A stretch of 57,209 nucleotides of DNA from an uncultured Pseudomonadales bacterium (GTDB lineage Bacteria; Patescibacteriota; Microgenomatia; UBA1400; PJMF01), in NCBI GenBank assembly GCA_964521215.1, contig CAZFRD010000001.1:1-57209 (forward strand), read 5' to 3'. Below, in pieces: positions 2,051 to 53,072 of the stretch; positions within the stretch are counted from its first letter, which is position 1; the number at the start of each line of letters is the position of its first letter. Below the pieces are notes generated by a model. That model saw only the letters and a program-made list of their open reading frames with translations, did no database searches and was not told where the DNA came from. The position numbers and the translations under genes were made by a program.

Positions 2051-2096
2051 ATACTGAGTAGCAAAACATAGAATTAACGAGTTGATTGTACAAAAG

Positions 2097-2669
2097 ATGA
2101 AAAAAACGACAATTATTTCCGGATTATTGTTAATAACTTCAACTTTGTGTATTTTTGTCTACTTGCTATTACTTTTTGATCGCAGCAAGAGAAGCCTCAA
2201 TACTCTTCCATGTGATGATTGCAAACTTTATTATAACCAAAAAGAGAAAATCGCTTTTTATTACCCAAGTAGCTGGGTAGCTGAAGATTTAAAACCTCAT
2301 GATATTCTCGAACCCTTCGTGCGATTATCTGACCAAGGCACTTCAACAATTTATTTTGGCGGTCCTAACGTTTTTTCAACTTCAGGTGCAATTTGCATTG
2401 ATCCTGGGCGGTTTTGTGGTGAGTCTGAGATATACGACTTAACCATTATGGATCGATCATACCAACTAACTCTATTCGGACTTTATCCAGTCAACCCAGA
2501 ACAACCTACAATTAAGACAGGACAAGTTGCCGACTTTTATCGATTTCAATTAGAATTCGAAATTCCAGAACGAGAGGGGTGGAATAAGTTAGTTGTAACC
2601 GGACAAATCTCCGATGCGATCGCGCTAGAGTCGGTAATTCCAATTATCAGCAGTATTCAAATCAGATAG
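2097..2669 (+). CDS. Hypothetical protein with N-terminal membrane anchor
   Basis: ORF 2082..2669. ATG at 2097 (MKKTTIISGLLLITSTLCIFVYLLLLF) gives a basic n-region plus one TM helix. No recognisable domain. Confidence 0.5.
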   Translation: MKKTTIISGLLLITSTLCIFVYLLLLFDRSKRSLNTLPCDDCKLYYNQKEKIAFYYPSSWVAEDLKPHDILEPFVRLSDQGTSTIYFGGPNVFSTSGAICIDPGRFCGESEIYDLTIMDRSYQLTLFGLYPVNPEQPTIKTGQVADFYRFQLEFEIPEREGWNKLVVTGQISDAIALESVIPIISSIQIR

Positions 2670-2698
2670 CTTGACGAGCTAGCGATAGGCTGGAATTA

Positions 2699-4858: not shown

Positions 4859-4969
4859 ATGATAGTTCCTCTTTAGAGTAAATACTTTGATAACCAATAG
4901 TACCTATAGTACACAAGAAACAGCCAGTGTAAATAATCTCTAATATATCAATAGTACTAATTCTGGATG

Positions 4970-6540
4970 CTAGTTAACCCAAAGCTCGCTAAAGCCGGTG
5001 TGTTGAGCGTCGTGCATGAACTGTCCCCATTCAATATTAGAACTATGAATAACATTGGGGTCATTTTTGTTAAGATCGTATACCCAAACCGCATCAAATG
5101 AACCAGTGATGCCATCCCAATAGTCGCCAGTGATAATAATTTCATTATGTCGGTCATTATCTATGTCAGCGATGGCTGGGACTGCTCCAAAACCAATGGG
5201 GTAGACGCCAGTCTGGTCCCATGCCTTTGCTGGTGTGCCATCATGATTAATCACATAGACATACCCAGTTGTGCCTACACCAGCCTGAGTTGTGGTAAAT
5301 ACTACCTCTGGTAGTGAATCCCCATCCACATCTCCGATCACGGGAGCTGAGTTGCCAACCAACTCCAATCGATCTCCAGTTTCAAACGGCCAACCAGCTA
5401 GTTGAGTACCAGTTCTGTCATAGGCTACCACCACCACTTTTTGTGAATTGATTGACTCTAATTGAGCAATAATATCCAGCTTACCATCTCTGTTTAAATC
5501 TGCTAAGGATACAGCGACTGATCGATTCGAGCCAGCTTCTGGCAGAGAAATGGTTTTTTCTACTTGACCATCAGGAGTAATTATTCTGATACTGGGAGTG
5601 AAGGGATAGTCGGGCAAACGATCAATTACCACTATTCTTACTTCTCCATTGGTTCCCACATTACCTATAGCTGGGTATTGGTCAGAATAACCAGCTGGTA
5701 GGGTGATTGGCCAATTTGGCAATGCACTACCACTAGCAGTAAAGGCGGAGATACTCATTCCTGCAGTCGAGCTACCTGAGACAGTGACAACTTCAGGTGA
5801 GCCGTCTTCATTTAAATCAGCGATAGCGGCTGTGTGAGTGTCTTGAGTGAGTTGAGTTGGCCTTGGCCAACCAGCAACTATATGACCAAACTGATTGTAT
5901 AACTATGTAACTTCCAGTCGTTTTCGTCAGTGAACATTTGATATTGATCATTAACTCCAATCAATGAAGGGGGATTTTCGTTATAATTTCCAGACCTTCT
6001 TACCCAAAGTGGTATGCCTTTGCCACTGAATGCTGCAGAGTATCCTTGAAAACTACCCACTAGCAATAAACCTTTTGTAGCAGCTGAGTATGCGGAGCCA
6101 CTGGCTGTATTTTGCACCGGAAATCCCACAAGCTCTTGGCCCAAGTGGTTAAATGCGTGCAGAGGACCTTTGGCCAGCTCCCCTCTAATAATATCTTTGT
6201 ATCCGTCGCCGTCAAGATCTTCAATTAGGGTATTTATAGCCGGCCCACCATGATAGGTACCTGTTCGAGCATTCATTTGAACAGGAAAACCTGCTTCCAA
6301 AAGATGTTGATTGGGGTCAGTGAAAGTTGGTTGACTTTTTGTACTATTTAATGTCTGAAACTGCCTAGGAAAAAAAGTAGTGATGTTATGTGAATCAGTT
6401 GTGAAAAGTTGGTATTTAGAACTAACCGCACCCCAAACTGCAGAACTTTGAGTAGTCATAACTAGCATAAAACAGAACGTTATTACGACCAATATGCTTG
6501 AAACCGACAAAAGTTTCCGACTAAACATATTTTCCTCCAA
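4970..6540 (-). pseudogene. FG-GAP/VCBS-repeat secreted protein, interrupted by a -1 frameshift near 5881-5902
   Basis: ORF 5878..6540 has a signal peptide and a DLDGDGYKDII repeat. ORF 4970..5758 has DxDxDG repeats (DLNRDGKLDII, DVDGDSLPEVV, DIDNDRHNEII). Repeat homology (IADLNEDGSPEVV, VAGWPRP) continues upstream of Met 5758 in that frame as far as the stop at 5903-5905. The other frame stops at 5878-5880, so the two frames overlap by only ~25 nt. Confidence 0.55.
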
Positions 6541-6740
6541 TTAGTATAGTTTCAGTACTATGTGTAGTTATTACATATTAATAATTAGCTGTCAATAATG
6601 ACTCAGACTGGTAATAACTGTTACTAATAGGGATGATTAGCTTGGGAGTTTCAATATTGGTTTACGTCACAATAGTTTATCATAACAGTAAATTCATATG
6701 TCAGGCCAAACACTGTTGCCCTAGTGTTAGAATAATCACT

Positions 6741-7715
6741 ATGAAGGACACACGGCCACAATCGCAAATAATTATTTATCAGTCGAAAAGCGGATCTCTC
6801 GATTTCAGGGGAGATTATAAAAAAGAAACGATTTGGGCAACGCAAGCTCAGATTTCCGAACTTTTTAAAGCTGAACGATCAGTTGTAACTAAACACATTC
6901 GAAATATTTTACAAGAAAAAGAATTAGAACAAGATTTAGTATGTGCAAAATTTGCACATACTGCAACAGATGGTAAAACATATCAGACCAAATATTATAA
7001 TTTGGATGTAATTCTAGCCGTTGGATACAGAACCAGCACCAATCGTGCAATCCAGTTTCGCCAATGGGCTACAAAAACTCTTCGTAATCATATTATCAGA
7101 GGGTACACCTTAAACAAAAAACGCATTGGCAACAACTACTCTGAGTTTCTCAAAGCAGTGGAATCTATTAAAAAATTGTTACCAGCGAATTCAGAAATCA
7201 GTGCACGCGAGACTCTTGAACTTGTTAAGCTTTTTGCCGGAACCTGGTTATCATTGGACGCTTACGACAAAGGCAAACTGCCCAGATCAGGTGCCAATAT
7301 CAAGCAAGTTACCATCACTGCACAAGAACTACAGCATGCACTGGCTGAGCTAAAAGCTGATTTGCTGAAAAGAAACGGGGCAAGCGAATTGTTTGGGCAA
7401 GAAAAACAAACCGGCGGTCTCGCTGGAATTATTGGTACTGTTTTTCAATCTGCGTTTGGTACAGATGCTTACACAACGGTTGAGGCAAAAGCCGCACACC
7501 TGTTGTATTTCATTATCAAAAATCATCCCTTCACAGATGGCAATAAACGAAGTGGGGCATTTGCTTTTGTTTGGTTCTTAAACAAAGTGCACTTGCTTAA
7601 CCCAGCCAAAATTTCACCTGAAGCATTGACGGCACTAACTCTACTTGTGGCAGAAAGCAAACCGCAGGCTAAAGAGCAGATTATTGGATTATTGATGCTA
7701 TTGCTGAAGAAATAA
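6741..7715 (+). CDS. RhuM-family N-terminal domain fused to Doc (death-on-curing, Fic/DOC) domain
   Basis: The N-terminal region (IWATQAQISELF...YYNLDVILAVGYRTSTNRAIQFRQWATKTLR) matches the RhuM virulence-protein family. The C-terminus carries the Doc-type motif HPFTDGNKR at 7524-7550. ATG 6741 is preferred over the ORF-track start at 6633 because the first 36 aa look non-coding. Confidence 0.75.
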   Translation: MKDTRPQSQIIIYQSKSGSLDFRGDYKKETIWATQAQISELFKAERSVVTKHIRNILQEKELEQDLVCAKFAHTATDGKTYQTKYYNLDVILAVGYRTSTNRAIQFRQWATKTLRNHIIRGYTLNKKRIGNNYSEFLKAVESIKKLLPANSEISARETLELVKLFAGTWLSLDAYDKGKLPRSGANIKQVTITAQELQHALAELKADLLKRNGASELFGQEKQTGGLAGIIGTVFQSAFGTDAYTTVEAKAAHLLYFIIKNHPFTDGNKRSGAFAFVWFLNKVHLLNPAKISPEALTALTLLVAESKPQAKEQIIGLLMLLLKK

Positions 7716-7716
7716 C

Positions 7717-8142
7717 ATGCCAAAACGAACTGCAAGCGACGAACCAAGAGATTTAACCAGCCTGACTCAAAAGCAGAGTGATAGGTTGTGGGGTGTTACC
7801 AGTCCGTACTCAGAGGCTCGCTTGATCTTTGAAAGTCGGATTATGGACACGGCAGTTTCTCGGGTGTTTATTGAGGTGCAGGTTTCAATTAATCCACTGA
7901 CATTTGAGACTATCTTGGAACATCGGGATGAGTTTGCCGACGATGTGATAATCCAACAACTACTTGATCACTCAGAATATCTAGGAGAAGCAGAAGGCTA
8001 TGTTTCATTGGCCTTCTGCCAGCACTATGTTGACAGCACTGTGCTTATTAAAGCTCAAGAACACCTAGAATTTGCCAAAGAAACCATTTTTAAAATGCAC
8101 AACTGGATGTACCAGTATTTGAGCAAGCAATGGATGAATTGA
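7717..8142 (+). CDS. Hypothetical acidic protein, tightly coupled to the RhuM-Doc gene
   Basis: 141-aa ORF whose ATG lies one nucleotide after the upstream TAA (7713-7715). No recognisable domain. Confidence 0.5.
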   Translation: MPKRTASDEPRDLTSLTQKQSDRLWGVTSPYSEARLIFESRIMDTAVSRVFIEVQVSINPLTFETILEHRDEFADDVIIQQLLDHSEYLGEAEGYVSLAFCQHYVDSTVLIKAQEHLEFAKETIFKMHNWMYQYLSKQWMN

Positions 8143-8182
8143 GTTTTGGTTGAGGTGAAGATTTAAAGCAATACGTCTCTTT

Positions 8183-10054
8183 TTACAATTCAGTTGCTAA
8201 AAGCTTTCTTTTGAAATAGTCACTCGTTTCTTCATCTGTTGAATAAATATAACAACCCTTCATTCCCCTTGTCATTAGGGTCTTGTAGGTGTTTTTGATA
8301 ATCAAATCTGCTTTTTTCTCTGTTCCCTCAACACCTGCTTTCAGGTCTCGTTTATAACCATTTAATGATTTGTCCGACTTCGCTCTTTGGTTTGGTTGCG
8401 TGATTACCTTACCGTTTCGCACAATTAAGTCTGGACCAATAATTACCCCCACGTACTCAAGTTCCAATCCTTGGCAAGTATGAATGCAACCCACTTGGTT
8501 CACCGAATTGGGAGCAATCAAAAAAGTTGGTCCATCATCTTCCAAATTCCACTGCATGGCAAATGAATAATCTGGAAACTCGATGTCAAAAAGATGTTTA
8601 TTTTTCTTACTTACCCAGTTCCAACAGTATCCCGCTACGATCCTAGCCTTATTGTGAATATTTTGTGCAACAATTGCCGATCGTAGCTCAGTTGGGGAGT
8701 CAAAGACACGAAAGTCATATGAGAGGCCTCTAATTGAGAAATTAGCAGTAGGGTGAATTTCTAATACATTGCCAAGCCAAGCTAAATATCCGTCTGATCC
8801 GTTACATCTGAATTGAGACTCTAATTTTGCATGGGTCACTTCAGCTCCCAGCTGATTTGCCCAAACTCTAATGGCTTTACTATCACCGATATCTTTCCAG
8901 GTGACTCTCTGATCGTTATCGATGAAAAATATTGAAGTTTTTGCTGCGATAATTAGCTCCTTAATTTGGTTTTCACCCAAATGGCTAAAAATACCACCTT
9001 TTTCGTTCAACCTGTGAGCTTCATCAACAATCAACAAGTCGATTTCATTAATCGAAGTATTAATATACGAACCAGATGATTGAAACAAGATGGAAATAGT
9101 GCTTTTTTTCATTGTTCCAGAAAGTTTTGCTTCAAAAACTGCTCTAGGCGCAGCATTCTTTGTCACATAGTGAGCATTGAGTTGGTTGCTAATTGCTGAG
9201 ACAAGTAGCTGAATAGCAATTACCGACTTACCTGTTCCCGGTCCACCTTCAACAATGAATACCCGTTTTTGGACATCGGCACTGTCTTTTGCCAGTTGAA
9301 GAGCGGTTTCAAACACCAGTTTCTGATCATCGATTAAGATAAATTCTTGATTACCCAACATCATGGAAGCAAGTTTATCAGCCAATTCTTTACTTGGTCT
9401 TACATTGCCACTATCTATTCTATAGAGTAGGTCGGGTTTTCCACCATATTTGACAAACTTATGGATGAACTCTTGCAGTTTTTCTTTGTCTCCTCTGCAA
9501 AAAAGTGGCGCTTTTTCAATGTAAAAATCATAAAAGTTATTTGTAACCGTATCATTGTCAGCATGATTGTGAAGGTAGGCGCAGGGAATAAGATCAATAT
9601 TTTCTGAGTAAATAACCTCGTTAAAATTATTCAGCAGAGTTGAGTAAGACCAAGCTTGATAGGATGGATGGGGTCTATCGGTCTGACCATGATGGAATCT
9701 GGTAGAAATCACACCGTCTTTTGCAGTCATGGTAATATCGGTCCACTGTTTAAGTTCAATAATAATTACTTTTTCTGTTTTATTTTCATCAAGACCACTG
9801 ATAATGAAATCAACTCTATATTTGGTTCTCGGAATGGAATATTCAACCGCTACCATAGCATCATCGGGAATCGTGTCGCTATTCATTACATGGAACATAT
9901 AATTGCCAAGCGAGTTTTTCCACGAGTTGTATTCACTGCCGTTGAGTTCTACAGTAATTCCGAGTTTTTCACTCACTTGCGATCGGATAATATCTTCTAT
10001 GCCATTGGCCGCATCTAACAAGAATTGTTGTTTAGTAGAATGGTAAACAATCAT
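8183..10054 (-). CDS. DUF2075-type ATPase/helicase with N-terminal PD-(D/E)xK-like nuclease motif
   Basis: 623 aa. Putative nuclease motif RVDFIISG...IIIELKQW at ~9745-9820. Walker A GGPGTGKS at 9224-9247 and Walker B LLIVDEAHR. C-terminal CIHTCQGLELEYVGVIIGPDL and TLMTRGMKGCYIY, as in DUF2075 and SF1 helicase-like proteins. Confidence 0.8.
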   Translation of the reverse strand: MIVYHSTKQQFLLDAANGIEDIIRSQVSEKLGITVELNGSEYNSWKNSLGNYMFHVMNSDTIPDDAMVAVEYSIPRTKYRVDFIISGLDENKTEKVIIIELKQWTDITMTAKDGVISTRFHHGQTDRPHPSYQAWSYSTLLNNFNEVIYSENIDLIPCAYLHNHADNDTVTNNFYDFYIEKAPLFCRGDKEKLQEFIHKFVKYGGKPDLLYRIDSGNVRPSKELADKLASMMLGNQEFILIDDQKLVFETALQLAKDSADVQKRVFIVEGGPGTGKSVIAIQLLVSAISNQLNAHYVTKNAAPRAVFEAKLSGTMKKSTISILFQSSGSYINTSINEIDLLIVDEAHRLNEKGGIFSHLGENQIKELIIAAKTSIFFIDNDQRVTWKDIGDSKAIRVWANQLGAEVTHAKLESQFRCNGSDGYLAWLGNVLEIHPTANFSIRGLSYDFRVFDSPTELRSAIVAQNIHNKARIVAGYCWNWVSKKNKHLFDIEFPDYSFAMQWNLEDDGPTFLIAPNSVNQVGCIHTCQGLELEYVGVIIGPDLIVRNGKVITQPNQRAKSDKSLNGYKRDLKAGVEGTEKKADLIIKNTYKTLMTRGMKGCYIYSTDEETSDYFKRKLLATEL

Positions 10055-10398
10055 AGTTCTGTGTACTTTTCATGTCGATTTTTTGCTTTGGCAACTGGAT
10101 ATTTTTTTTCGTTGATACGTAGTTTTTTTTCTAGTGCCTCGTTAATATCTATTTTAAAATCGTGACTCATTAATAATACCCAGTAGAGCACATCCGCTAA
10201 CTCTTCGCCCAAATTAGCTCTGTGTTTTTCAAGATGGGATTTGATTTCATCATCATTCTTCCACTGAAAGTGTTCCGCCACTTCTGCGGCTTCGAGTAGA
10301 AGAGAGATAGCCAAATCTTTTGGTTTATGGAATTGTCTCCAATTACGGGCATTGCGGAAGGCAATAATTTTTTTAATTAATTCTCCAATTTGTGTCAC
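10051..10398 (-). CDS. MazG-like nucleotide pyrophosphohydrolase
   Basis: 115 aa, all-alpha, with metal-binding motifs LLEAAEVAEHFQW and LGEELADVLYWVLL typical of small MazG/NTP-PPase proteins. Its stop overlaps the DUF2075 start by 4 nt (10051-10054). Confidence 0.75.
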   Translation of the reverse strand: MTQIGELIKKIIAFRNARNWRQFHKPKDLAISLLLEAAEVAEHFQWKNDDEIKSHLEKHRANLGEELADVLYWVLLMSHDFKIDINEALEKKLRINEKKYPVAKAKNRHEKYTEL

Positions 10399-11634: not shown

Positions 11635-12249
11635 CTATTTAACCAATGTGGCGAGAACTAATAATCGTTTCCACGTGGTGCCTGGTGGAGTACAAGTCAT
11701 GAGTACGAGGTCTGTTTCAGAATTATTTTCTAAGTAGTTGATGGCGTCTGGGTTGACGGTTTTGACTTGGGTGACTTGATACTTGAAAGGGGCGCCTTGG
11801 TAGTAAATCGTGATTTCATCATTGGGTTCCATTTTATTGAGCAAGTAAAAAATGGAGTTGTAGCGGCGCGCCATCGTTATATCGCCACTGGCGTGAGCAA
11901 ATAAAAACATGGTTTTATCTTCTCCTGGCAGACCGGTGCCTTTGGCATGAGCTACGCCTTTGGTCAGCTCTCGTTGATAGATGTTTGAATCGTAGGGATC
12001 GACATCAACCACAATGGGTGCGTTGGCTTCAATTTTTGGAATTAGAATGCCAAAATCGGTGTTGACCGGCTCGAGTGCCTTTTTAGTAGCCACTTCATTG
12101 AAGAATAGTTGTTGCACCTGAGCTGGCGTAGATTGTTTTAGGGTATACCGTGTTTCGGCTATTAGTAACGGGCCATACTCATAACCAAGGCTAATAGCGC
12201 CAAACAAAAGCAGTGCCAACCCTATTGCTAGCGCCAATTTATTTTTCAT
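11635..12249 (-). CDS. Sortase family transpeptidase
   Basis: N-terminal TM anchor (MKNKLALAIGLALLLFGAISL), then FAHASGD and the catalytic LVLMTCTPPG (TLxTC-like) motif. ATG 12249 is preferred over 12291. It overlaps the 3' end of the giant LPATG protein gene by ~11 nt. Confidence 0.8.
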   Translation of the reverse strand: MKNKLALAIGLALLLFGAISLGYEYGPLLIAETRYTLKQSTPAQVQQLFFNEVATKKALEPVNTDFGILIPKIEANAPIVVDVDPYDSNIYQRELTKGVAHAKGTGLPGEDKTMFLFAHASGDITMARRYNSIFYLLNKMEPNDEITIYYQGAPFKYQVTQVKTVNPDAINYLENNSETDLVLMTCTPPGTTWKRLLVLATLVK

Positions 12250-15200
12250 TCCGCTTGCCGAAGAAGATGATGTAGAGTCCAGCCAAGACAATCAACCCGA
12301 CGCCAATTGGTAAGCCAAAGCGACTGAGAAATGACATAAAGGTTTCGGTGGCCGAACCAAGTACGGCACCATCGGTTGACTCAGTTGCCGAAGGTTCTGC
12401 CGTGGTTTCATCGGTGGCAGTTTCATCTTCAGTAGTTCCAGTTGTATCTTCAGCTGATTCTCCCGCGGTGGTTCCACCAGCAGTATCTCCGCCAATGAAG
12501 GCTGAGCCAGCAGGAATGGCACCCAGTTGAACCGTTTGAGTGGTGCCATTGTTTGACTCGATGATCACAGTTTTAATCTCCAGATCACCAACTAAGTCAG
12601 AAGCATTACCATTGACGTCGAAGGCGCGGATCACGTAGTAGTACGTATCATCACAATTAGGCTTAGATGTTGTCAGGGTGTATTCCTGGCTTGGCCCAAT
12701 GGGGATAGTTGTTACTCGAGTTTCTGGTTTGGCGGTGAAGTGATCGCTATCCGTACTGCGATAAACTTCAACGCTGGTGGTTTGACCGTCGTTGGCAGTC
12801 CTGAAGCCGATTTTATCCTCACAGTAGTTGCCTGGGTTTTTGCTGTAGTTAACCGGTTTGTCTGGACCACTGGTTTCAAGTCCAACTCGCACTTCATCGC
12901 TAATCTTATCTGGTCCATCACCACTGACGACCACTCGGAAGTCGTAATTTTGGGTGTTTTCCAAGTCTTTGGCTTCACAGTATCCAGAATTTCCACCAGC
13001 TTTGATGGTATAGTTGGTCGAAATATTTGACCAGGCACCATCATTCTTCTGTTGTTGACACTGGGCGGTCAGACTTAGGTTATCAGTATTCAGGACTACA
13101 AAATCAACTTTCAAAGAAGTCTGGTTGGTGATTGCATCAAGGGTAAACTCAGCACTATTGTTGTAGGGTTCTTCAATTCTGACAGAAGTTAGGGCTTGCG
13201 CAGGTTGGGCAAACCAGAGTGAGAATCCTACTACGAAAAGTCCCAGCAAAACTTTGAGACCTGAGTTGCGCGAACGCTTACTCATGATCAGGAAGCCAGC
13301 GCCAGCCACGATACTCAAGAGTGCTAAGAAAGTTAACCAGGCTCGAGCTCCCGTTGCGGGCAACTCCGTGCTGGCGCCCAACACCGTGCCTTGCTTTTCT
13401 TCGGTTTTACCAACCTGATATTCGCTGAAGGGAGTTTGATCCTTAACCATTGCTACTTGGGTACCAGCAAAATGCTCTTCGCCAAAATGACCCCAGGCTC
13501 CGTTAAAGTCAACTCCGCCACTGCTAGCAGTGAACTCTGGATCGGAAAGAGCCAGTAAATCGTTAGTTTCTCCGCCAGTTTTGTCTGATTGCTCACTCGT
13601 ACCTGTGGCCCAAACCATATCTGGGTAGACACCGGGATCGGCCAAGGTACCAACTTTGGTTTTGTAGGTCAGGGTGACAATTTCGTCTTTAGCTAAGTCG
13701 CCCAAGTTCCATTCGCCAGGTGACTGATAGTTGGGATCACCAGTTGTGCCATCAGCTCGTAGGTCCGTACCATCGGATGATTCAGCTGTGAAACTATCTG
13801 GAACGTAGGTGAATTGTGCTGGTGGCACATCTAAGACAGTAGCATCATAGACTGGTCCACCAACTGCCATCACTCTAATAGTGTATGTCACTTCATCACC
13901 TGATGTGACGTCAGTGGGCCAAGCGTTATTTGTCTTCAGAATGTACAACCGACTATCAATAAAGTTGCCAAAGTTGGCTACCTCAGTTTCGCCAGATTGA
14001 TCAATGACCACTTCGCGGCAAACAGTATCGACTGGTTCAGCGGGTTCAGTTACTTGCCAGCCCCAGGCAGTGCGGTCTTCCTCACATAGGGTGTAGGTGC
14101 CCTTTTTAAGGTTAGCAAAGCTGAACTCACCATTTTCATCGGTGACTACTTGTTGATCAACATCAGGACCAGACAGACTGATGCCCCAGTATTGCATCTT
14201 TGATTCACCATCATCAAAGTTACCATCTTGGTTCTCATCAAAATATTTAACTCCCCCAATTGATCCTGGTTGGTAGTTGCCAACGTAGCAATTGATGTTT
14301 GCACCAGGATTGACCACGACACGATGTCCCTCTGGATCTGGTGCCGGTTGGGCATTAACTTGGGTGACACCTAAGATTCGATCAATAACACTCGATGCAT
14401 CTGCGTCTTGGATAGGTGTGGGAGTGGGGGTTGAGGTGGGACCACCATAATTTCCACAGCGAATATCAGTCACACCCATGACTGGACACCAGTTGCCCCA
14501 TTCCTCCTGATAACTTAAATCGTGATTGATGTCGTAAAATAAACTACAATTTTCGAACTCTGTACATGGTCTCGCATCTCCATATGAGACCAGACTTGCA
14601 TAGCCATTTGCCTGACATGCTTTCAGCGCACACGTTGCCGCATCACCGCATTCATTCCATCCTTCGCACATACCATGATGCCCATAGGCTCTTCCAGGAC
14701 CTGTAATTAGAGTTCCTTCAAGATCCTCGGTACAATAAATATTTGATTGTTCCCAACCGTCTTGTAAAGTTTCGGATAGGAAATAGGTGTTAGGATCCAA
14801 GCTGAACTGGGTACTGCCACCAGTCCCTGTAGTTTGGGTGGCTAAAAAGCCATTAGTTGCTTCCATACTCATCGCCCAGCCACTCATAAGTTCCTCGCCA
14901 GAGTCATATTTACCATTGGTATTTTGGTCGAGGAATTTGTTTACAGTGACAAATCCTTTATGGATGTTGCCAAATTCCGTGTAGACAATGTATCCGGAAT
15001 TATTCACTGTCACGCCTTCACAGACTGGATACTCATCTATATCATGGTTGGGCGAGTCGTTATTAGCAGGATTATTGAGTGAACGCATATCTTCCCACTC
15101 ATCTTTTTTAACCTCACAAACTCGATAGTCACCAACTTCATCAATCAAGTGATCAAAGACTGCTCTACCATCACCGTTGGTGTTTGCCTCACCAACCAAA

Positions 15201-18200
15201 CTCCAACCATCGTCTTCAACCTGATAGAGTCGGAAGGTAAACGTGGGATCGCCAATCCAAAACTCTTGTCCATCCGTTCTACCGAGCACGCCATCAGTAT
15301 CTTCATACTTATCCACGTTAACAGTAGCCTTTTCAAAGTTACCGAAGTCAAAGCCAGTTAAGTTTTCTCCAGCATCTAGTAATACAGCGTTGTATAAACC
15401 AAATTCATTGGGATCTGTTGCTACATAATCACCACCACTCAAGTCCTCGGCGATTTTATACATGCCTGGTAGAAGATTCTCAAAGATGTAGTTGCCAGAA
15501 TTATCAGTAGTGGTTTCCGTCAAATATACATAGTTGATGCCATCGTGCTTGTAAAGCTCAATCGTCCAACCTTCATATGTTGTATCCGTATTATCAAACT
15601 GACCATTGACGTTGACGTCGATGTATTTCATGCCAGCAAATGATCCTTTTGCAATAAATTTATTTGTGAGAGTAATTTCTGGAACCTGCTCACCGACAGT
15701 CACTGATGCAGGATAGTTAGTGATCACATCACTTCCTACGGTGGTTGATTGGTATGCCCAATCTTCGACTGGAGCTTCAAAGACATGATAGTCGCCGTAG
15801 GGCACATCGGTAAATGTTGCACAACCGTTTTCTCCCACCATGCCAGCAAACATTTGTCTGTCAATTTGAGCTCTAAAGTTGCCATTATTTGCATTATCGC
15901 CATAATTGTCGTCCCAAATTGCTAAGTTCAAATCACCTTCAAACCCAGTTAAATAATATGAATATTGATGCAGATTATTGAACCCTCCCCAAGTAACATT
16001 GCCTCCGTTAACCTTTAGTTCCAATGCGCCGGGCACACTGAGTAAATCATCACCACTCACCCAACCACCTGTTCCGTAGGGGATGCCCACTGGTCTAAAA
16101 GAGTAACCAGCGTCTGCAATCATTGCCTCATTACCATAACGATAGGTTCCCGAGGTATAGATGACATAGGCGCCAGAGCTGAGGTTGGTAGTGGTACCGG
16201 CACCACTGTTGACAGGAATTTCTTCGTCAAAACCAGTGGGTTGACTTAGACCAACTTTCCAGCCACTCAGTGGATTGCCACTACTGTCTTGCTTACAGAC
16301 AGTGACGTCATTTTTTGGCAAACCATTGCATATAACTTGGATGTCGTCGACGAACATACCGAGGGAGTCAGCTCTACCTAGCTCTGTAAAACGGATTTCG
16401 GTGAGCGTTGTGGTTGCAGTAAAAGTATAACTTTCTGATTGCCAGTTGGTATTGCTACTACCAGAAATGACACCACTGTTAAAGACTTCGGAACCTCCAA
16501 CTTGCACTTGAAGATGGTTGTTGCTGTGGTTTGGACGGGCAGAATACTTCCAACTGACGGTGTATTCATTTCCAATAATTGTAGGAATGCTTTGAGCAAG
16601 GGTGATAGAGGCGGGCTCGCCACTAAAGTCATTGATTGGCCCAGTCCAGTCTGTATCTAGCTCTACATATTGTGAACCACTGGCTGGCAACCAACCGTTT
16701 ACTCCACGATGCAGTTCTATTTGTGGCTCTGGTCTGTCATGGCCACTATATGAGGCAGATCCTCCATACCAAGTAGCTGTCCAACCAGCCATTTCGGCAT
16801 TATCAAAAGCATCCCATCCAGCACTCTGATTGACCTCTGGTGTTTCAAAACTACTATTGGCTGCCATGGCCTCACGACACTCATTGACCCAAGTACATTC
16901 GCTCGAACAACTTGATTGACCGTTTAATTGTCCATAATCACACTGTTCTTGGTTATTGACTATGCCATCGCCACAATACGCTGTTTTAGTATTGGTAAAC
17001 GTACAAGTGACATCCTCGCCAGCAATCAAGCTAAATGAAGCAGTTCCGTTGCCAAAATTATCTTGAGGATCCCATGGTTTATTTGATTGACAACTAGTTA
17101 GTTCCATCGACCAACCATTCAGAGATTGCTCAGATATATCATAAATATTTGGGGGAAGATCGGTGATTTCATAAGTGTTGCTCAACGTTGGATCTGAGTC
17201 ATCATCTAAACTAAATTCGGTTGCAGTTAACCCAACTCCACCAAACGAAAAGACGAAGTCTTGGGCATCATCGGGTTGGGCATCCTTAATAATTGTAATA
17301 GATCCTGGAGCAGGAGTGGGTGTGGGAGTTGAAGTGGGAGTAGCCGTTGGGGTCGGAGTCGATGTTGGAACTACCGAATTAACAAAGTCGCAAGAGATGA
17401 TGACATTGTCACCAACAGTAATATTTTGCACTCCGGAATTTCCACCGTTGTCGGTAAAAGAGGAACCAATGTTTGCTCCTGCCTGATCTCGACAAGTCGC
17501 AGACGTAAAGTTGTAGCCTGATGGTATCTGATTAGTTAGCTCAACAATTGAATAGCCACTGCCAGCAGTCAGTTTTCCACTTTCTGCCGTACTTGCTTGA
17601 CCATTGGCATCTGTACCGAGATTGTTTGAATAGTCGTTTGGTCCAGTCACACTAAACATCCAGTTGTTGTCTCCCCTCGTAGCATCGCTCACTGTGCCAA
17701 TATACTTGTTAACCGAAATGGCTCCTCCACAAGTTTGGGCTGCAAAGGTGGCTAGGGTAGTAGCAAGAGTGGCAAAGTCAGACGTGATAACATCTGCGCT
17801 TAAGTCAGTTCCTACGGTGGGACCAGATATTGCCTTCAAATTATTTACATCTAAGCCGTCGCCGATTCCTAGGGCAATAATTCTAACCCCAGATGTTTTT
17901 AGTGTATTCGCTATAAGTACGGCCTCAGCTACAGCTTGAGCCTCACTGACAGTCGAACCGTTATCAACGCGATTGGGATTGCCATCTGAGGCAAATAGCA
18001 CTAGGTCTGGATTGGATCGATTTGGTAGTGTAGATTGAGCTTTGATTAAGCCATCTTCCCAATTGGTAGAACCACCACTCGATGGTGTATTGATGGCATT
18101 TTTAACCGTGGTTACATCTCCAGAAAATGTTTGCAAAACAGCTGCCGTAGAATCAAAATCTGTTACTGAAAATTGAGTGGGTGTCCCTGGGAGCAACGCA

Positions 18201-20086
18201 TCAACAAAAGCATTAAAGGCAGTTTTCATGGCTGATAATTCACTACTATCAATACTGCCAGAACTATCCAGAACTAAGGCAATATCCAACCCACAAGCTT
18301 GAGAAAGAATTGGATTCGGGGCAGGAGTAATTGCTGCAATGGTAACACTGTCCGAACAGTTGTTATTTGATTCATTATTTTCTGAAACGTCTGAGTCAGG
18401 ATCAACTTGACATTTATTACTACCACCCGTTCTTGGATTTGTTAAAACTCCAGTGACAAGGGGAGTGACTATAAAAGAAACGTCAAACGAACCACCGGCA
18501 GCAATATCAACATATCTTGTGCCACTACCCTGGCTAACTTTGCACGTTAAATTCTCAGAAGAGCTAATACTGCAAATTATACCGCCGTTATCGGTAATAC
18601 CGACTAAGTTATCTACCGTAGGTGAGCCATAACTCACCTCACTGTCATTGCTTGGCAAATTGTCAACTAGAATGGTTTCATTTTCATCAAAATCAGCTTG
18701 TATGTTACCACTATTAGTCACATGTAATATCCACTTGAATTGAGAACCCAGAGTTAAAGTTCCGTTAACGTCATTAGTTTTTGCTACTGTTAGATCAGGA
18801 TAATCACCGACAGTCACAGCAAAAGAATCAGTACCAGTATCTTTGATATCTGAAGCACTGCCACACTCAGATGAACTGTAATGTTTAGTTATCTTGGCCG
18901 ACCAACTTCCCAAAGGGGCGTTAGGAGGTAGGGCGTAATTAGCATTTTTTGACGGAAAATTTCTTGAACAAGCCCCAATATTATGATTTGTGGTTCCGTC
19001 AGGTTCGATTAAGTCAATTCTATACCATGTTGAGTTGTTGTTCTGGAGATTGGTTGAGTTGGTATAAACTACTTCACCCTGTTTGTAACTTGATTTTTCA
19101 ACAGAAAATGAGTTATTGGAGTATGTAGCAATAAAGATTGTGAAATGATCAAGACCAGAAGCTTTAATTTCAGTGTCTTCAGTTATTTGCTCAACTTTAA
19201 CTTGATCGTCTGTGCTGACAAGCTTGATATCATCGGCAGACATATCTAATTTTGCCTCCTCCGCAGTTTTTTCAATATATTTTATTTCAGCAGTCGCTCC
19301 CTCTAACTTTGGCAGAGTTAACTCGTATTTAAACGTCCCATCCGCCATCTCCGTCGTAATATCGTAAGCATACGTAGCATCTGTCTGGACGGAATCTGGT
19401 AAATTAAGCTCGCTTACTAGTACTTGTTGAATCTTGAGTGGGGAGCGCAAGCTCTCATCTTTGGGCAGACAAGAAAAAGTCATGCTGACAGCATCATCGA
19501 GAGGGAATTGATAACTTACACCTGGTTGAACTTTAGTTTTGGTCTCTGCCACACCCGTAGCTTCATCGACCGTCCAGAGGGTTTCACCAGCAGAGAGGTC
19601 ATTCTCATCTGGATTCACGCAGGTCTGCTCAACGAAACTACTTGGGCCATCAAACACTATCGCGCCATTAACTAGTTGAAATGAACGATTAAAATTATCA
19701 CCAACAATTAGAGTCCCACTGATAAAAGTGATTGGTGTACAAGCTTCACCCGAGCATGTGCCAGCATAAATATCAGCTCCAAACACACCTTCCGCCATTT
19801 TCTCCAAGTCTCCTTGAGCCGCTTGCTCGACTTGAGGGTCTTGCTTTTCGTCAAAATAGGTTAAAACATAAGGAAGAGCCTGATCGGTTTTTACTCTGAG
19901 TTGAAATTCATGATTACTAGCATTGAAAGACAAGTCCACCGCATCCGCACTTACGGTAGTCTCAGCTTGCACTACAACAGGGTTTGCCATTAATACTGGC
20001 AATGCTGCGAGCGGTTGAAAAGCGAGAAAAAAAACGTTGAGGGAACTAAATACTTGCAAAATAAGACGACGGACGCGTTTGTTCAT
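12239..20086 (-). CDS. Giant (2615 aa) multidomain surface protein/adhesin with internal LPATG sortase signal
   Basis: One uninterrupted ORF with an N-terminal signal peptide. vWA domain with MIDAS DSSGS (~17850-18310). Pro/Thr linkers at ~17305-17385 and ~14406-14448. CGDGIVNNQEQCD cysteine-rich repeat at ~16900-16985. Several SdrD-B/Cna-B-like repeats (e.g. GGVKYFDENQDGNFDDGE) and a DUF11-like repeat. LPATG at 13349-13363 is followed by a TM helix and KRSR. About 350 further residues follow and end in a second TM helix plus GKRNEK. Confidence 0.85.
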   Translation of the reverse strand: MNKRVRRLILQVFSSLNVFFLAFQPLAALPVLMANPVVVQAETTVSADAVDLSFNASNHEFQLRVKTDQALPYVLTYFDEKQDPQVEQAAQGDLEKMAEGVFGADIYAGTCSGEACTPITFISGTLIVGDNFNRSFQLVNGAIVFDGPSSFVEQTCVNPDENDLSAGETLWTVDEATGVAETKTKVQPGVSYQFPLDDAVSMTFSCLPKDESLRSPLKIQQVLVSELNLPDSVQTDATYAYDITTEMADGTFKYELTLPKLEGATAEIKYIEKTAEEAKLDMSADDIKLVSTDDQVKVEQITEDTEIKASGLDHFTIFIATYSNNSFSVEKSSYKQGEVVYTNSTNLQNNNSTWYRIDLIEPDGTTNHNIGACSRNFPSKNANYALPPNAPLGSWSAKITKHYSSSECGSASDIKDTGTDSFAVTVGDYPDLTVAKTNDVNGTLTLGSQFKWILHVTNSGNIQADFDENETILVDNLPSNDSEVSYGSPTVDNLVGITDNGGIICSISSSENLTCKVSQGSGTRYVDIAAGGSFDVSFIVTPLVTGVLTNPRTGGSNKCQVDPDSDVSENNESNNNCSDSVTIAAITPAPNPILSQACGLDIALVLDSSGSIDSSELSAMKTAFNAFVDALLPGTPTQFSVTDFDSTAAVLQTFSGDVTTVKNAINTPSSGGSTNWEDGLIKAQSTLPNRSNPDLVLFASDGNPNRVDNGSTVSEAQAVAEAVLIANTLKTSGVRIIALGIGDGLDVNNLKAISGPTVGTDLSADVITSDFATLATTLATFAAQTCGGAISVNKYIGTVSDATRGDNNWMFSVTGPNDYSNNLGTDANGQASTAESGKLTAGSGYSIVELTNQIPSGYNFTSATCRDQAGANIGSSFTDNGGNSGVQNITVGDNVIISCDFVNSVVPTSTPTPTATPTSTPTPTPAPGSITIIKDAQPDDAQDFVFSFGGVGLTATEFSLDDDSDPTLSNTYEITDLPPNIYDISEQSLNGWSMELTSCQSNKPWDPQDNFGNGTASFSLIAGEDVTCTFTNTKTAYCGDGIVNNQEQCDYGQLNGQSSCSSECTWVNECREAMAANSSFETPEVNQSAGWDAFDNAEMAGWTATWYGGSASYSGHDRPEPQIELHRGVNGWLPASGSQYVELDTDWTGPINDFSGEPASITLAQSIPTIIGNEYTVSWKYSARPNHSNNHLQVQVGGSEVFNSGVISGSSNTNWQSESYTFTATTTLTEIRFTELGRADSLGMFVDDIQVICNGLPKNDVTVCKQDSSGNPLSGWKVGLSQPTGFDEEIPVNSGAGTTTNLSSGAYVIYTSGTYRYGNEAMIADAGYSFRPVGIPYGTGGWVSGDDLLSVPGALELKVNGGNVTWGGFNNLHQYSYYLTGFEGDLNLAIWDDNYGDNANNGNFRAQIDRQMFAGMVGENGCATFTDVPYGDYHVFEAPVEDWAYQSTTVGSDVITNYPASVTVGEQVPEITLTNKFIAKGSFAGMKYIDVNVNGQFDNTDTTYEGWTIELYKHDGINYVYLTETTTDNSGNYIFENLLPGMYKIAEDLSGGDYVATDPNEFGLYNAVLLDAGENLTGFDFGNFEKATVNVDKYEDTDGVLGRTDGQEFWIGDPTFTFRLYQVEDDGWSLVGEANTNGDGRAVFDHLIDEVGDYRVCEVKKDEWEDMRSLNNPANNDSPNHDIDEYPVCEGVTVNNSGYIVYTEFGNIHKGFVTVNKFLDQNTNGKYDSGEELMSGWAMSMEATNGFLATQTTGTGGSTQFSLDPNTYFLSETLQDGWEQSNIYCTEDLEGTLITGPGRAYGHHGMCEGWNECGDAATCALKACQANGYASLVSYGDARPCTEFENCSLFYDINHDLSYQEEWGNWCPVMGVTDIRCGNYGGPTSTPTPTPIQDADASSVIDRILGVTQVNAQPAPDPEGHRVVVNPGANINCYVGNYQPGSIGGVKYFDENQDGNFDDGESKMQYWGISLSGPDVDQQVVTDENGEFSFANLKKGTYTLCEEDRTAWGWQVTEPAEPVDTVCREVVIDQSGETEVANFGNFIDSRLYILKTNNAWPTDVTSGDEVTYTIRVMAVGGPVYDATVLDVPPAQFTYVPDSFTAESSDGTDLRADGTTGDPNYQSPGEWNLGDLAKDEIVTLTYKTKVGTLADPGVYPDMVWATGTSEQSDKTGGETNDLLALSDPEFTASSGGVDFNGAWGHFGEEHFAGTQVAMVKDQTPFSEYQVGKTEEKQGTVLGASTELPATGARAWLTFLALLSIVAGAGFLIMSKRSRNSGLKVLLGLFVVGFSLWFAQPAQALTSVRIEEPYNNSAEFTLDAITNQTSLKVDFVVLNTDNLSLTAQCQQQKNDGAWSNISTNYTIKAGGNSGYCEAKDLENTQNYDFRVVVSGDGPDKISDEVRVGLETSGPDKPVNYSKNPGNYCEDKIGFRTANDGQTTSVEVYRSTDSDHFTAKPETRVTTIPIGPSQEYTLTTSKPNCDDTYYYVIRAFDVNGNASDLVGDLEIKTVIIESNNGTTQTVQLGAIPAGSAFIGGDTAGGTTAGESAEDTTGTTEDETATDETTAEPSATESTDGAVLGSATETFMSFLSRFGLPIGVGLIVLAGLYIIFFGKRNEK
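13283..13363 (-). other. Internal cell-wall sorting signal (LPATG + hydrophobic helix + KRSR) inside the giant ORF
   Basis: LPATG at aa 2242-2246, then ARAWLTFLALLSIVAGAGFLIM and SKRSRNSG. No stop codon follows. The next residues (LKVLLGLFVVGFSLWFAQPAQA) look like a signal peptide or TM re-entry segment. Confidence 0.75.
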
Positions 20087-20549: not shown

Positions 20550-22091
20550 ATGAAAAAGTTGTGGCAATTGATGAGACGTTACTGGTTACTTTGGGTATTA
20601 GTTGCAATCTATATTTTTAACCGAATACCACTAATTATTTTTCAGCAATTTGCTTTTACCTTTGATCATGGTAAAGATTCTTTGGCGGTAATGGATTTGG
20701 TGACAAGTCTCTCACCAAAATTAATTGGGCCCTGGACTAGCATTCCTGGATTATATTTTGGGCCAGCCTGGTATTACTTGCTGGCGCCGATTTACTGGCT
20801 ATTAAACTTTAACCCACTCGCTGGCCCGCTCACCATGATGTTGCTTGGCCTGGTTCAATTAGTCGTAGTTTATAAATATTTTGGTCGACTTACTGCTCTG
20901 ATTGTTGTTGCAGCTCCACTTTGGTTTATGACAACAACGAGTGCCTGGAATCCATATCCATTAACTCTGCTAACTTGGCTGATTCTTTCATTTCTCGATA
21001 ATTTAAGAAAAACTCCGGAAAAAAAACGTACATGGTTCTTTTTGGGCTTGTGCATGGGTTTGGGTTTTCACTTTTCCACTGCGTTTGCGGTACTATATCC
21101 AATTCTTGTAGCGATTAGTGTGTGGCTAAGGAAAATTAAATTTTCAACCTCAGTTATCATAATTTGTGTTGTTGGTTTCATCCTACCTTTTGCACCACAG
21201 CTAGCATTTGAAATAAGACATGATTTTTCGGAAACAAAGGCAGTATTGGCATACCTAAGAGGTGATGTTCCCATAGAGACTCAGGCTAAACCGAATCCAT
21301 TGGTGGTGCTTTATTCAGCCACCAGCGAAGTTAAATCTGCAGTATTCTCAGGCATTACTGGTACGCAGTTTGAAGATAAGCTTTGGTTACTTGGTTTTAT
21401 TGCGGTGTTAATCTGGGCGAGTCGAAAATATCTCAGCAAACCTCACTCTTCAACGTTCATACCATTGGCTGAATTTTTCAGCTGGTTTTTGATCAGCATC
21501 ACTTGGTTTTCTTTCACTCACTTTAATACCTGGTACCTATTAGGAATAATGCCCTTGGCTGTGGTCGTATTTTCCAGCGTAGCAAAAAAAGTGCCAAAAG
21601 CTCTAGTTGGTTTGTGGATTATTCTTTTGTTTATTAGTCCACTCATTTCCGTAGCTCGAATTTTTATTGATAGTAATCGATTTTCTGCTAACCGATCATT
21701 TTTACCAGTTAAACTGAAAACTATCGAAACGATTTACGAAATTGCAGGTGATCGACCTTTTGCATCTTATCAATATGCTCCCCACATCTACGATTTTGAT
21801 TGGCAGTACCTCTATTTTTGGCGTGCGGCCAATGGTAGTCGCTTGCCCAGCGAGTTTGCCTACGAGCCGAATGTCGTACCATATATTGTAGTGAAACCAG
21901 ATTTGCTCAAACACTTCGCTCACCAAGTAGACTCAAGGCACCCAGAGTTGATTTTTTACGTGGTAGAACAACCGATTTATCCAAGTCAGTTGGTCGACTG
22001 GTGGCAACGTCAGCGTTTTGAGAAAATTGTGGAAACGATAAAAATGTCAGACCAAGTCACACTTTATGTCGCTCAGCCGAAAGCAGAATAG
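20550..22091 (+). CDS. Polytopic GT-C-like membrane protein, paralog of the 49413 gene
   Basis: 513 aa, multi-TM. The N-terminal block DHGKDSLAV...LIGPWTSIPGLYFGPAWYYLLAP...SAWNPYP aligns by eye with DQGRDALRV...FIGPVTSIGNMYLGPLYYYFMLP...FSWNPNP of ORF 49413..50927. Confidence 0.65.
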   Translation: MKKLWQLMRRYWLLWVLVAIYIFNRIPLIIFQQFAFTFDHGKDSLAVMDLVTSLSPKLIGPWTSIPGLYFGPAWYYLLAPIYWLLNFNPLAGPLTMMLLGLVQLVVVYKYFGRLTALIVVAAPLWFMTTTSAWNPYPLTLLTWLILSFLDNLRKTPEKKRTWFFLGLCMGLGFHFSTAFAVLYPILVAISVWLRKIKFSTSVIIICVVGFILPFAPQLAFEIRHDFSETKAVLAYLRGDVPIETQAKPNPLVVLYSATSEVKSAVFSGITGTQFEDKLWLLGFIAVLIWASRKYLSKPHSSTFIPLAEFFSWFLISITWFSFTHFNTWYLLGIMPLAVVVFSSVAKKVPKALVGLWIILLFISPLISVARIFIDSNRFSANRSFLPVKLKTIETIYEIAGDRPFASYQYAPHIYDFDWQYLYFWRAANGSRLPSEFAYEPNVVPYIVVKPDLLKHFAHQVDSRHPELIFYVVEQPIYPSQLVDWWQRQRFEKIVETIKMSDQVTLYVAQPKAE

Positions 22092-22396: not shown

Positions 22397-23416
22397 ATGC
22401 ATATTCGCGAATACATATTAAAAAATCCAGAAGGAAGGGTGGAGGGAATTTTCAAAAAATCAATAAGACATTTGTTAACCGGGTTCGATAAAGAAACACT
22501 TAGAAGAGGGTGGCATTACTATAAAATTTGGCTTAAATCAAGAAAAGTCGATGCTGTCTTTTTTCGAGAAATTGAGACAATTAACGACTTTGCAGGCGAA
22601 AAAAATGTAAATGTATTTTATTATTCAGCAAACGAAAAAAACAGTGAAGAAAACATTGCCGTAACTGAATTTCCACCCGATGCAACTTTTCGTTATTGCC
22701 TGATAGACGAAGACAAAATAGATCATATAAGAAGAAAGAGCGAATTGCCATTTTCTGATTCTAAAGTGAGTGTAACAAATGCCTTGATCGATTTAGTCCC
22801 CAATGCTATCTGCGGAGTGATAGGACCGACTAGATTTATTGGTGGATTACATCCTAATAATGGTTTTTTTACCAAAGGGCAGGGGGTAATAAAGCCATTT
22901 GTAGACACAAACCCGATTGGTCAACGGAGAGGAGCCATTGCAATAAATTCTAAAGGAATCTTTTCAATACTAACTGAGGAAGAAAAGCTGAAAGCCAGAA
23001 GTACAAATTTTGAAGGATTCGAGATGGTTTCGGGAACATCATTTTATTTTACCTCTGATGACTCATCTTCAAAAGTGGAATTAATGGGTCAATCGGATAC
23101 TTCTATGTGTCACTACTTAGTTTCATACGAACAACGCGGTGGTAAGAGGAGAATAGCCGTTTTTAGCGCTATTAGGTTAGTAAATCGTAAGCAGGTAAAA
23201 CAATTTTTAGACCAGCATGCAAAAAATCATGGGTGGGTATTTTATATTGCTGCAGAAACTGAATTAAATGGAGGCGGTGTTTTCTTTAGAGACGATGTTA
23301 CTGTTTTAGACCATGAACTAGAAAATGTAAGTACTAGGATCAAACAATCGGGAGTGTACCCAACAGACTCAATCCAATGGAATCGAAGCGATCAGTATTT
23401 CATATGTAGAAATTAG
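22397..23416 (+). CDS. Hypothetical protein
   Basis: 339-aa ORF starting 8 nt after the previous stop. No confidently recognised domain. Confidence 0.5.
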   Translation: MHIREYILKNPEGRVEGIFKKSIRHLLTGFDKETLRRGWHYYKIWLKSRKVDAVFFREIETINDFAGEKNVNVFYYSANEKNSEENIAVTEFPPDATFRYCLIDEDKIDHIRRKSELPFSDSKVSVTNALIDLVPNAICGVIGPTRFIGGLHPNNGFFTKGQGVIKPFVDTNPIGQRRGAIAINSKGIFSILTEEEKLKARSTNFEGFEMVSGTSFYFTSDDSSSKVELMGQSDTSMCHYLVSYEQRGGKRRIAVFSAIRLVNRKQVKQFLDQHAKNHGWVFYIAAETELNGGGVFFRDDVTVLDHELENVSTRIKQSGVYPTDSIQWNRSDQYFICRN

Positions 23417-46274: not shown

Positions 46275-46278
46275 GCTC

Positions 46279-47241: not shown

Positions 47242-47256
47242 AAAGGATATGTTGTT

Positions 47257-53060: not shown

Positions 53061-53072
53061 TACAATAACAAT

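Follow-up and report, generated by a model that had tools for sequence, protein, structure and literature searches.

Textbooks and annotation pipelines treat sortase signals as strictly C-terminal. The closest precedent for another layout is found in the streptococcal IgA1 protease and ZmpB/C/D, which combine a signal peptide, an LPXTG motif, two hydrophobic segments, a second signal-peptidase site and an exported domain (PMC3518915). In these proteins the LPXTG lies near the N-terminus, with a short peptide upstream and an M26 metalloprotease downstream. A sortase family is reported in more than half of the genomes of the Candidate Phyla Radiation (CPR) and is near-ubiquitous in Microgenomates (PMC6744442). 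We analysed a 57,209-nucleotide (nt) stretch of DNA from an uncultured bacterium of the Microgenomatia (contig CAZFRD010000001.1; hereafter the window), which has 42.6% G+C and contains no rRNA or tRNA genes. Here, the open reading frame (ORF) of a giant LPXTG adhesin runs through its sorting signal, in frame, into a second membrane protein built on tandem Fn3 domains (hereafter the module), and a sortase gene follows. Adhesin and module are fused in this genome and in most of its relatives.

As in the streptococcal proteins, the LPXTG lies away from the C-terminus, and two hydrophobic segments and then another signal-peptidase site come after it. The differences are that 2241 amino acids (aa) precede the motif, and that the downstream part is an Fn3 membrane protein with its own C-terminal transmembrane (TM) anchor, encoded by a separate gene in relatives; we found no peptidase match downstream of LPATG with Pfam, NCBIfam or Foldseek. 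The two sets of proteins share no sequence homology and come from different phyletic groups. An earlier reading of the window from its sequence alone (the original prediction) had called a non-C-terminal LPXTG unusual; it is, but with precedent in the IgA1 protease and ZmpB/C/D (PMC3518915). We searched the literature on internal LPXTG motifs, on sortase polyproteins and on the sortase substrates of CPR bacteria, and found no description of an LPXTG in mid-protein that is fused to a conserved membrane protein downstream. The locus appears to be a three-part surface-display cassette, comprising a giant fibrillar LPXTG adhesin, a tandem-Fn3 membrane module and a dedicated sortase, and seems typical of Patescibacteria-like (CPR) genomes. 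It would define a natural polyprotein matured by the joint action of sortase and signal peptidase, which is not how cell surfaces are usually built, and would add a previously undescribed conserved third component to the sortase cassettes of ultra-small, host-attached bacteria, in which giant adhesins are thought to mediate episymbiosis.

A sorting signal in mid-frame

The fused protein is encoded by a single ORF of 2615 aa (12239–20086, on the minus strand, as are all features of the cassette given below). It begins with MNKRVRR and a hydrophobic stretch that qualifies as a Sec signal peptide in a hydropathy scan (MNKRVRRLILQVFSSLNVFFLAFQPLAALPVLMANPVVVQAE, 19961–20086). Pfam matches along the protein are to VWA, SpaA, SpaA_4, SdrD_B, a DUF11 repeat and choice-of-anchor C; VWA, SpaA, SdrD_B and DUF11/CLIPPER domains are of the fibrillar adhesin or tip pilin type (PMC12617251). 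The last adhesin domain (13487–13939) is a DUF11/CLIPPER-like β-sandwich of CnaA type, recognised by a TIGR01451 match, by alignment and by Foldseek (9ifr, TMt 0.67), and the alignment retains it in all fused and split homologues. Next come GTVLGAST (13367–13390), which is conserved in fused homologues, a single Glu, and LPATG (aa 2242–2246; 13349–13363), where the predicted sortase cut falls between T2245 and G2246. The predicted substrate peptide around this site is VLGASTELPATGAR. TM1 (ARAWLTFLALLSIVAGAGFLI; aa 2247–2267; 13286–13348), identified by hydropathy and AlphaFold2, forms the hydrophobic part of the signal, and the basic loop MSKRSRNSGLK (13253–13285), predicted to be cytoplasmic, provides the charged tail. 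Hence, the pentapeptide, the hydrophobic segment of ~20 aa and the positive tail (KRSR) of an LPXTG sorting signal are all present, but the signal is not at the extreme C-terminus: 340 residues continue in frame with no stop codon.

The same basic loop would serve as the n-region of an internal signal peptide (aa 2279–2298; 13193–13252), which consists of an h-region, VLLGLFVVGFSLWF, and a c-region, AQPAQA, with a predicted signal peptidase I cut between A2298 and L2299. An in-frame ATG at 13283–13285 encodes M2268, the first residue of the loop. The mature module (aa 2299–2615; 12242–13192) starts LTSVRIEEP and has ~220 β-rich residues after AQA, followed by a Thr/Glu/Gly/Asp-rich stretch of ~60 aa. 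Its parts are, in order, a conserved N-terminal strand, the first Fn3 domain, a PxxPxxYxK linker, the second Fn3 domain, GAIPA, an acidic Thr/Glu/Gly linker, GAVLG (12356–12370; column frequencies G 72%, V 71%, L 70% and G 85%), TM3 and GKRNEK. TM3 (aa 2590–2609; with its basic tail, 12242–12319), detected by hydropathy and AlphaFold2, is the putative permanent anchor of the module; the C-terminus reads FGLPIGVGLIVLAGLYIIFF-GKRNEK and is followed by a stop codon. Across the whole protein, a Kyte–Doolittle scan detects four hydrophobic segments only: the N-terminal signal peptide, TM1, TM2 and TM3. The original prediction had described a mid-ORF LPATG, a hydrophobic helix and basic tail running on without a stop, an internal ATG opening a signal-peptide-like segment (which ends AQA), a β-rich Fn3-like part, an acidic Thr/Glu/Gly-rich stretch with a last TM helix and GKRNEK, and a sortase gene overlapping the 3' end of the ORF. 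All of this was borne out; the Fn3-like part resolves into two tandem Fn3 domains (AlphaFold2 and Foldseek), and the overlap with the gene matching Pfam Sortase is 11 nt.

This arrangement is not particular to the window. A homologue search with the last 473 aa found 16 proteins, eight of which (30–54% identity) keep LPATG, TM helix, basic loop, hydrophobic segment, AxA and module in one frame. The uninterrupted junction was also read in loci L001–L003, L006–L009, L011 and L014–L018. Fused loci were drawn from independent NCBI, ENA, JGI and Logan assemblies, and include a 1.08-Mb contig, a 0.80-Mb contig and the closest relative, whose module is 89% identical. We then scored a module profile against 1.84 billion cluster representatives (50% identity), which gave 1483 matches at E ≤ 1e-3 and 532 clusters at E ≤ 1e-30. 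Among the best 159 cluster representatives, 107 have an LPXTG-TM-loop upstream in the same polypeptide. A sortase motif, LP[ASGKY]TG or MPxTG, is present in 103 of the 104 fused junctions examined directly (LPATG 61, LPSTG 20, LPGTG 14, LPKTG 4, LPYTG 1 and MPxTG 3), and 100 of 102 fused homologues have a [VIL][LIV]G motif no more than 12 aa upstream of it. The distance from LPXTG to the basic cluster has a median of 21 aa across the family, and the median net charge of the loop is +3. Thus, the order LPXTG, TM helix, basic loop, signal peptide, module recurs in more than 100 diverged homologues. A chance LPXTG is ruled out, since its conservation goes together with that of VLGAST, the TM helix and the basic loop. 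Because the fusion is conserved in many related uncultured bacteria we take it to be real and not an error of assembly; judged from these sequences, it is conserved and unusual, and extends a rare known layout.

In this large family, which comprises at least 532 clusters (50% identity) at E ≤ 1e-30, a mid-protein LPXTG is the majority state. Gene callers split or shorten such genes, and LPXTG predictors that require a C-terminal position miss these substrates. Public gene calls for the fused genes are indeed shortened: P0008 was called as 447 aa inside an ORF of 2563 aa (L001 8001–9344 within 1653–9344).

The split form and the predicted processing of the fused precursor

The original prediction had proposed aligning orthologues to decide between one gene and two. 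A single fused gene is found in most relatives, and a split two-gene form is found in others, where family members are stand-alone proteins of 315–340 aa with their own N-terminal signal peptide. We inspected eight stand-alone entries at locus level. Six are true separate genes (L004, L005, L012, L013 and the JGI contigs of P0015 and P0041); P0027 looks like a stand-alone gene but is a fused one cut off by the edge of its contig (L010 1–30), and P0013, which occurs only on contigs of ~1.3–1.6 kb, is not assignable to either state. Split adhesins end VLGASTxLPxTG-TM-(L/I)RRKY[AE]-stop, and the module ATG lies 8 nt upstream of the adhesin stop in an ATGnnTAA overlap, with the sortase gene directly 3', giving the order adhesin-LPXTG-stop, module gene, sortase (junctions read at L004 130–150, L005 485–505, L012 8–26 and L013 2930–2950). 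AGGAG or GGAGG precedes the module ATG in L004, L012 and L013, and L005 has only a weak AAGAAG. These Shine-Dalgarno sites are formed by Arg codons of the sorting-signal tail (AGG AGA, CGG AGG). In every locus that extends far enough, fused or split, the sortase gene is immediately downstream and usually overlapping. On a neighbour-joining tree fused and split members are interspersed, with at least 23 changes of state compared with ~41 for shuffled labels; the 23 changes and the fused:split ratio are approximate, and the 51 stand-alone calls, with the changes counted from them, are upper bounds, since some of these calls are contig-edge fragments. This interspersion suggests that small indels at the overlap have interconverted the two forms repeatedly. 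A 1-nt indel in ATGnnTAA would convert one form into the other.

The second hydrophobic segment of fused proteins is indistinguishable from the signal peptides of stand-alone modules. The distance from the last Lys/Arg to position −1 has a median of 21 aa in the former and 20 aa in the latter; Ala occupies −1 in 102 of 103 fused and 48 of 49 stand-alone sequences, and −3 is mostly Ala or Val in both, with Thr also common in the fused form. In the window, the h-region has only 14 residues and is followed by the Pro-containing c-region, which looks typical of a cleavable signal peptide and not of a stable TM helix. An AlphaFold2 model of aa 2040–2615 shows a disordered LPATG linker of low predicted local distance difference test (pLDDT) score, two helices, a c-region with pLDDT below 50, and then two confident Fn3 domains, a disordered linker and a final helix. 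Since fused and split forms share their signal-peptide geometry, a precursor cut twice, by sortase at LPAT/G and by signal peptidase I at AQA/L2299, is the best reading, and we put its probability at roughly 70%.

In such a pathway, Sec would export the adhesin until TM1 stops transfer, leaving the basic loop in the cytoplasm; the second hydrophobic segment would act as an internal signal peptide that restarts export, and the Fn3 module would cross the membrane and be anchored by TM3. Sortase would cut LPAT/G and transfer the adhesin to an acceptor, either peptidoglycan or possibly the module itself, and signal peptidase I would cut AQA/L2299. The predicted products are a sortase-linked adhesin of 2245 aa, a type-I membrane protein of 317 aa in 1:1 amount, and a discarded two-helix hairpin of 53 aa (G2246–A2298). 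Fused and split forms should yield the same two functional products. The proposed topology is coherent with the four hydrophobic segments, the +3 loop and the AlphaFold2 helices. The earlier idea of a sortase-processed polyprotein thus fits the comparative evidence (a conserved fusion, a sortase gene downstream in every locus that is long enough, and two coupled genes in relatives). The stable three-TM remnant that it envisaged after the sortase cut probably does not form: the second segment keeps its signal-peptidase site (Ala at −1 in 102 of 103), so that processing most likely ends with a single-pass Fn3 protein and the 53-aa hairpin.

We considered three other explanations. That an assembly or sequencing error joined two ordinary genes, an alternative raised in the original prediction, might draw on the stop codon that distant relatives carry after the basic tail. 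However, the identical in-frame junction recurs in at least 14 other loci from independent assemblies, the 89%-identical relative among them, and in over 100 diverged cluster representatives, with contigs of 0.8 and 1.08 Mb among the fused loci; junction conservation effectively refutes this explanation, which we consider vanishingly improbable. The original prediction had also suggested independent translation of the module from the internal ATG, so that the module would be made mainly from 13285 or an equivalent start and the continuation of the adhesin would be incidental read-through. Several features are consistent with this: MSKRSRNSGLKVLL...AQA reads as a full signal peptide, the corresponding codon of the closest relative is TTG, and the module is a separate gene in relatives. 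Against it, the DNA upstream of ATG 13285 has neither a Shine-Dalgarno site nor a −10-like box, and the start codon is not conserved: in our analysis of start codons and Shine-Dalgarno sites in nine fused and four split loci, the loop of L003 contains none of ATG, GTG and TTG, and the sole candidate in L001 is a TTG that encodes the first residue of the hydrophobic segment and lacks a Shine-Dalgarno site. Of the nine fused loci, L008 alone has anything like a Shine-Dalgarno site ahead of a loop start codon, a weak AGGA, whereas the split loci mostly have AGGAG or GGAGG. Moreover, with no stop codon every ribosome that translates the adhesin also makes the module, and internal starts are therefore not needed. 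Internal initiation thus seems neither needed nor supported, and we regard it as unlikely. A protein in which LPATG is uncut, or cut only under some conditions, would be a three-pass membrane protein with two ectodomains. Cleavage at LPATG is a prediction, and the non-C-terminal LPXTG of streptococcal IgA1 protease is described only as 'required for proper localization' (PMC3518915). But LPXTG and VLGAST are conserved in ~99% of fused forms and are identical to the canonical C-terminal signal of split forms, the dedicated sortase gene is always downstream, and the AxA site is conserved; an uncut protein is accordingly improbable in our view.

Sequence architecture, conservation, gene order and the equivalence of fused and split forms are direct observations. 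Some points weigh against the double-cut precursor as we describe it. We infer from sequence the two cuts, the topology and the module's role as stoichiometric partner or tether, and the specificity of the sortase for the adjacent adhesin is assumed from adjacency. A Met lies near the loop in 58 of 102 fused junctions, a point in favour of internal initiation. A Shine-Dalgarno-like motif precedes only six of the 43 genes in the window, and the motif-based argument against an internal start is therefore not absolute. The approximate nature of the fused:split ratio and of the 23 state changes belongs with these points.

As an observation on start signals in general, a TANNNT hexamer ends 4–12 nt before the start of 15 of 43 ORFs in the window, compared with 6.0 ± 2.3 at random positions. 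Many mRNAs here may be leaderless or short-leadered (for example 2699–4897, 20550–22091, 42570–43985 and 54646–55329).

The Fn3 module, the sortase and the acceptor

AlphaFold2 and Foldseek identify the module as tandem Fn3, with neogenin, integrin β4 and Vibrio cholerae RbmA as top matches (RbmA entries 4kkq, 4kkp and 4be6); these Foldseek matches are generic to tandem Fn3 and assign no family. The module family has no match in Pfam (whole protein, and 14 members scanned singly) or NCBIfam, and a sequence-profile search of PDB found no relative of known structure. Across 155 module sequences, four cysteines are conserved, one pair per Fn3 domain, and we read them as two invariant disulfides. 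The strand directly after the signal-peptidase site (LSVRLEEPKSPTN) is conserved across the same sequences, as is GAIPV after the second Fn3 domain. In AlphaFold2 models, the pLDDT of the N-terminal strand is ~65 for the module alone and 88 within aa 2040–2615, where the strand stands next to the last adhesin domain but the alignment was also deeper and contacts or predicted aligned error were not output. The inter-domain motif PxxPxxYxK contains a lysine, K2416 (codon 12839–12841), that is 97% conserved and is the sole strongly conserved lysine of the module. The acidic Thr-rich linker of ~60 aa resembles a wall-spanning segment. Shortly before the module TM anchor, GxVLG echoes the GxVLGAST that precedes LPXTG in the adhesin; the shared element could serve in sortase docking or could be left over from a sorting signal that was duplicated. 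Fusion or translational coupling would enforce 1:1 synthesis of adhesin and module, which argues that the module may be a stoichiometric partner (tether, stalk or acceptor) and not a catalytic factor. Two ideas about the module were set aside. GAIPV is not a cryptic second sortase motif, as the next two positions are not conserved as Thr-Gly, and the new N-terminal α-amine of the module is unlikely as a sortase nucleophile, as the residue after AxA varies (Ala 41%, Val 12%, Ser 9%, Gly 8%).

The sortase gene (11635–12249; PF04203, 1.2e-21) encodes 204 aa from its likely ATG at 12249–12247, which gives an 11-nt overlap with the adhesin ORF; read from TTG 12291, its longest ORF would overlap by 53 nt. 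An N-terminal TM helix is present, and the His (FAHAS), Cys (LMTCTP) and Arg (KRLLV) residues align with those of solved sortases; on this alignment the enzyme is intact. Its nearest solved relatives are pilus-assembly sortases of class C (E ~5e-9). The best NCBIfam model is also of class C (NF033745), but its score of 72.4 bits is below the cut-off of 160, and the protein falls below every NCBIfam class cut-off; against TIGR03784 it scores 22 bits (cut-off 158). Class C sortases carry a lid, a DP[FWY] motif N-terminal to strand β1. In this sortase the stretch from the TM helix to ILIPKI (β1) contains no DP[FWY]; a DPY is present in an insertion after β1. Hence, we did not keep the class C assignment and leave the enzyme unclassified. 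The window includes a gene for a D-Ala-D-Ala carboxypeptidase, which makes the presence of peptidoglycan probable.

A further possibility concerns the acceptor. Sortase might join Thr2245 to the ε-amine of K2416, in which case the module would act as a membrane-anchored 'base pilin' in a covalent adhesin-module heterodimer held by TM3, and the net effect would be a splicing-like excision of the two-helix hairpin. K2416 suits such a role in being the only strongly conserved lysine (97% of 155 sequences) and in lying in an exposed inter-domain linker. The class C resemblance of the sortase (nearest solved structures and best NCBIfam model) is relevant because class C enzymes use lysine nucleophiles; the VWA and SpaA/CnaA-type domains of the adhesin are tip-pilin-like, fusion or coupling places donor and acceptor side by side at 1:1 stoichiometry, GxVLG is common to module and substrate, and the long linker of the module could span the wall. 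Other evidence points away from this. The sortase scores well below the class C cut-off (72 versus 160 bits) and lacks the DP[FWY] lid before β1; Fn3 domains commonly begin with a structural PxxP motif, and the lysine may thus have a structural role; and peptidoglycan is apparently present. The module has an Fn3 fold and not the CnaB pilin fold. Comparison of K2416 with pilin-motif lysines points both ways: the YxK lysine is 97% conserved, but it lies outside a WxxxVxVYPK context. Nor does the module have an LPXTG of its own, as a base pilin would: it ends with GxVLG, a TM helix and a KR tail. We regard ligation to K2416 as a tentative proposal with the odds against it. Equally doubtful is the wider picture of a peptidoglycan-independent display device, in which LPAT would be ligated in cis to K2416, signal peptidase would free the module, and the hairpin would be excised, leaving a branched adhesin-stalk on TM3. 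If true, in cis ligation would represent a sortase reaction of a new kind, and one that is widespread in Patescibacteria. Two questions become testable with this family: what the acceptor of CPR sortases is, and whether fusion and translational coupling are interchangeable routes to 1:1 assembly.

Related systems and surrounding genes

With canonical LPXTG proteins and sortase-assembled pili the locus has in common the LPXTG, a hydrophobic segment of ~21 aa, a basic tail and an adjacent sortase gene. The VWA and SpaA/CnaA-type stalk domains are those of tip pilins in such pili, and the sortase is nearest to class C. In contrast to those systems, the signal here lacks a stop codon, the partner has neither LPXTG nor CnaB fold and is TM-anchored, and the sortase lacks the lid motif. 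A different dedicated system, of Proteobacteria, consists of a class GN sortase, a single VWA-containing target and the accessory protein PdsO. The logic is shared, with one sortase, one VWA target and one conserved accessory envelope protein, but that accessory protein is OmpA-like and not Fn3-TM, the target has a normal C-terminal signal, and the sortase of the window matches TIGR03784 only weakly.

The module itself can be compared with PamR, a protein encoded in the Pam pilus operon of the CPR bacterium Candidatus Mycosynbacter amalyticus. PamR has a signal peptide and an additional strand at its N-terminus, its two FnIII domains are RbmA-like, and a TM helix lies at the C-terminus; the proposal is that it holds a surface filament to the membrane (bioRxiv 10.64898/2026.03.03.709456). 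By AlphaFold2 and Foldseek the module has the same architecture, a likeness to PamR (WP_260763282.1) at the level of the described domains. PamR belongs to a donor-strand-exchange pilus operon for which that paper describes no sortase, and no fusion to a substrate is reported. The pam context of PamA/B pilins and PapD-like chaperones is not found here, where the neighbours of the module are the adhesin, the sortase and an HAD hydrolase gene.

Some surrounding genes may also bear on the cell surface. In L003, two secreted β-rich proteins of 344 and 403 aa are encoded right after the sortase gene (2207–3241 and 3299–4510) and may be surface or pilin-like proteins. Several large ORFs of the window (339–732 aa) have no Pfam match: 20550–22091 (+), 22397–23416 (+), 2699–4897 (−) and 51720–54644 (+); one of these Pfam-negative ORFs is divergent from the adhesin gene. 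A helicase resembling Schlafen group 3 (8183–10054, minus strand; PF09848, 4e-97) overlaps a MazG-like gene (10051–10398, minus strand) by 4 nt, and with a nearby gene for a RhuM+Fic protein (6633–7715, plus strand) they make up a defence- or toxin-like islet beside the adhesin operon. The window also contains two PMT_2/ArnT-like glycosyltransferases and a block of sugar-nucleotide genes (jointly with the D-Ala-D-Ala carboxypeptidase gene, 242–2050, 49413–50927, 44973–49406 and 43997–44956), whose products might glycosylate Thr-rich linkers.

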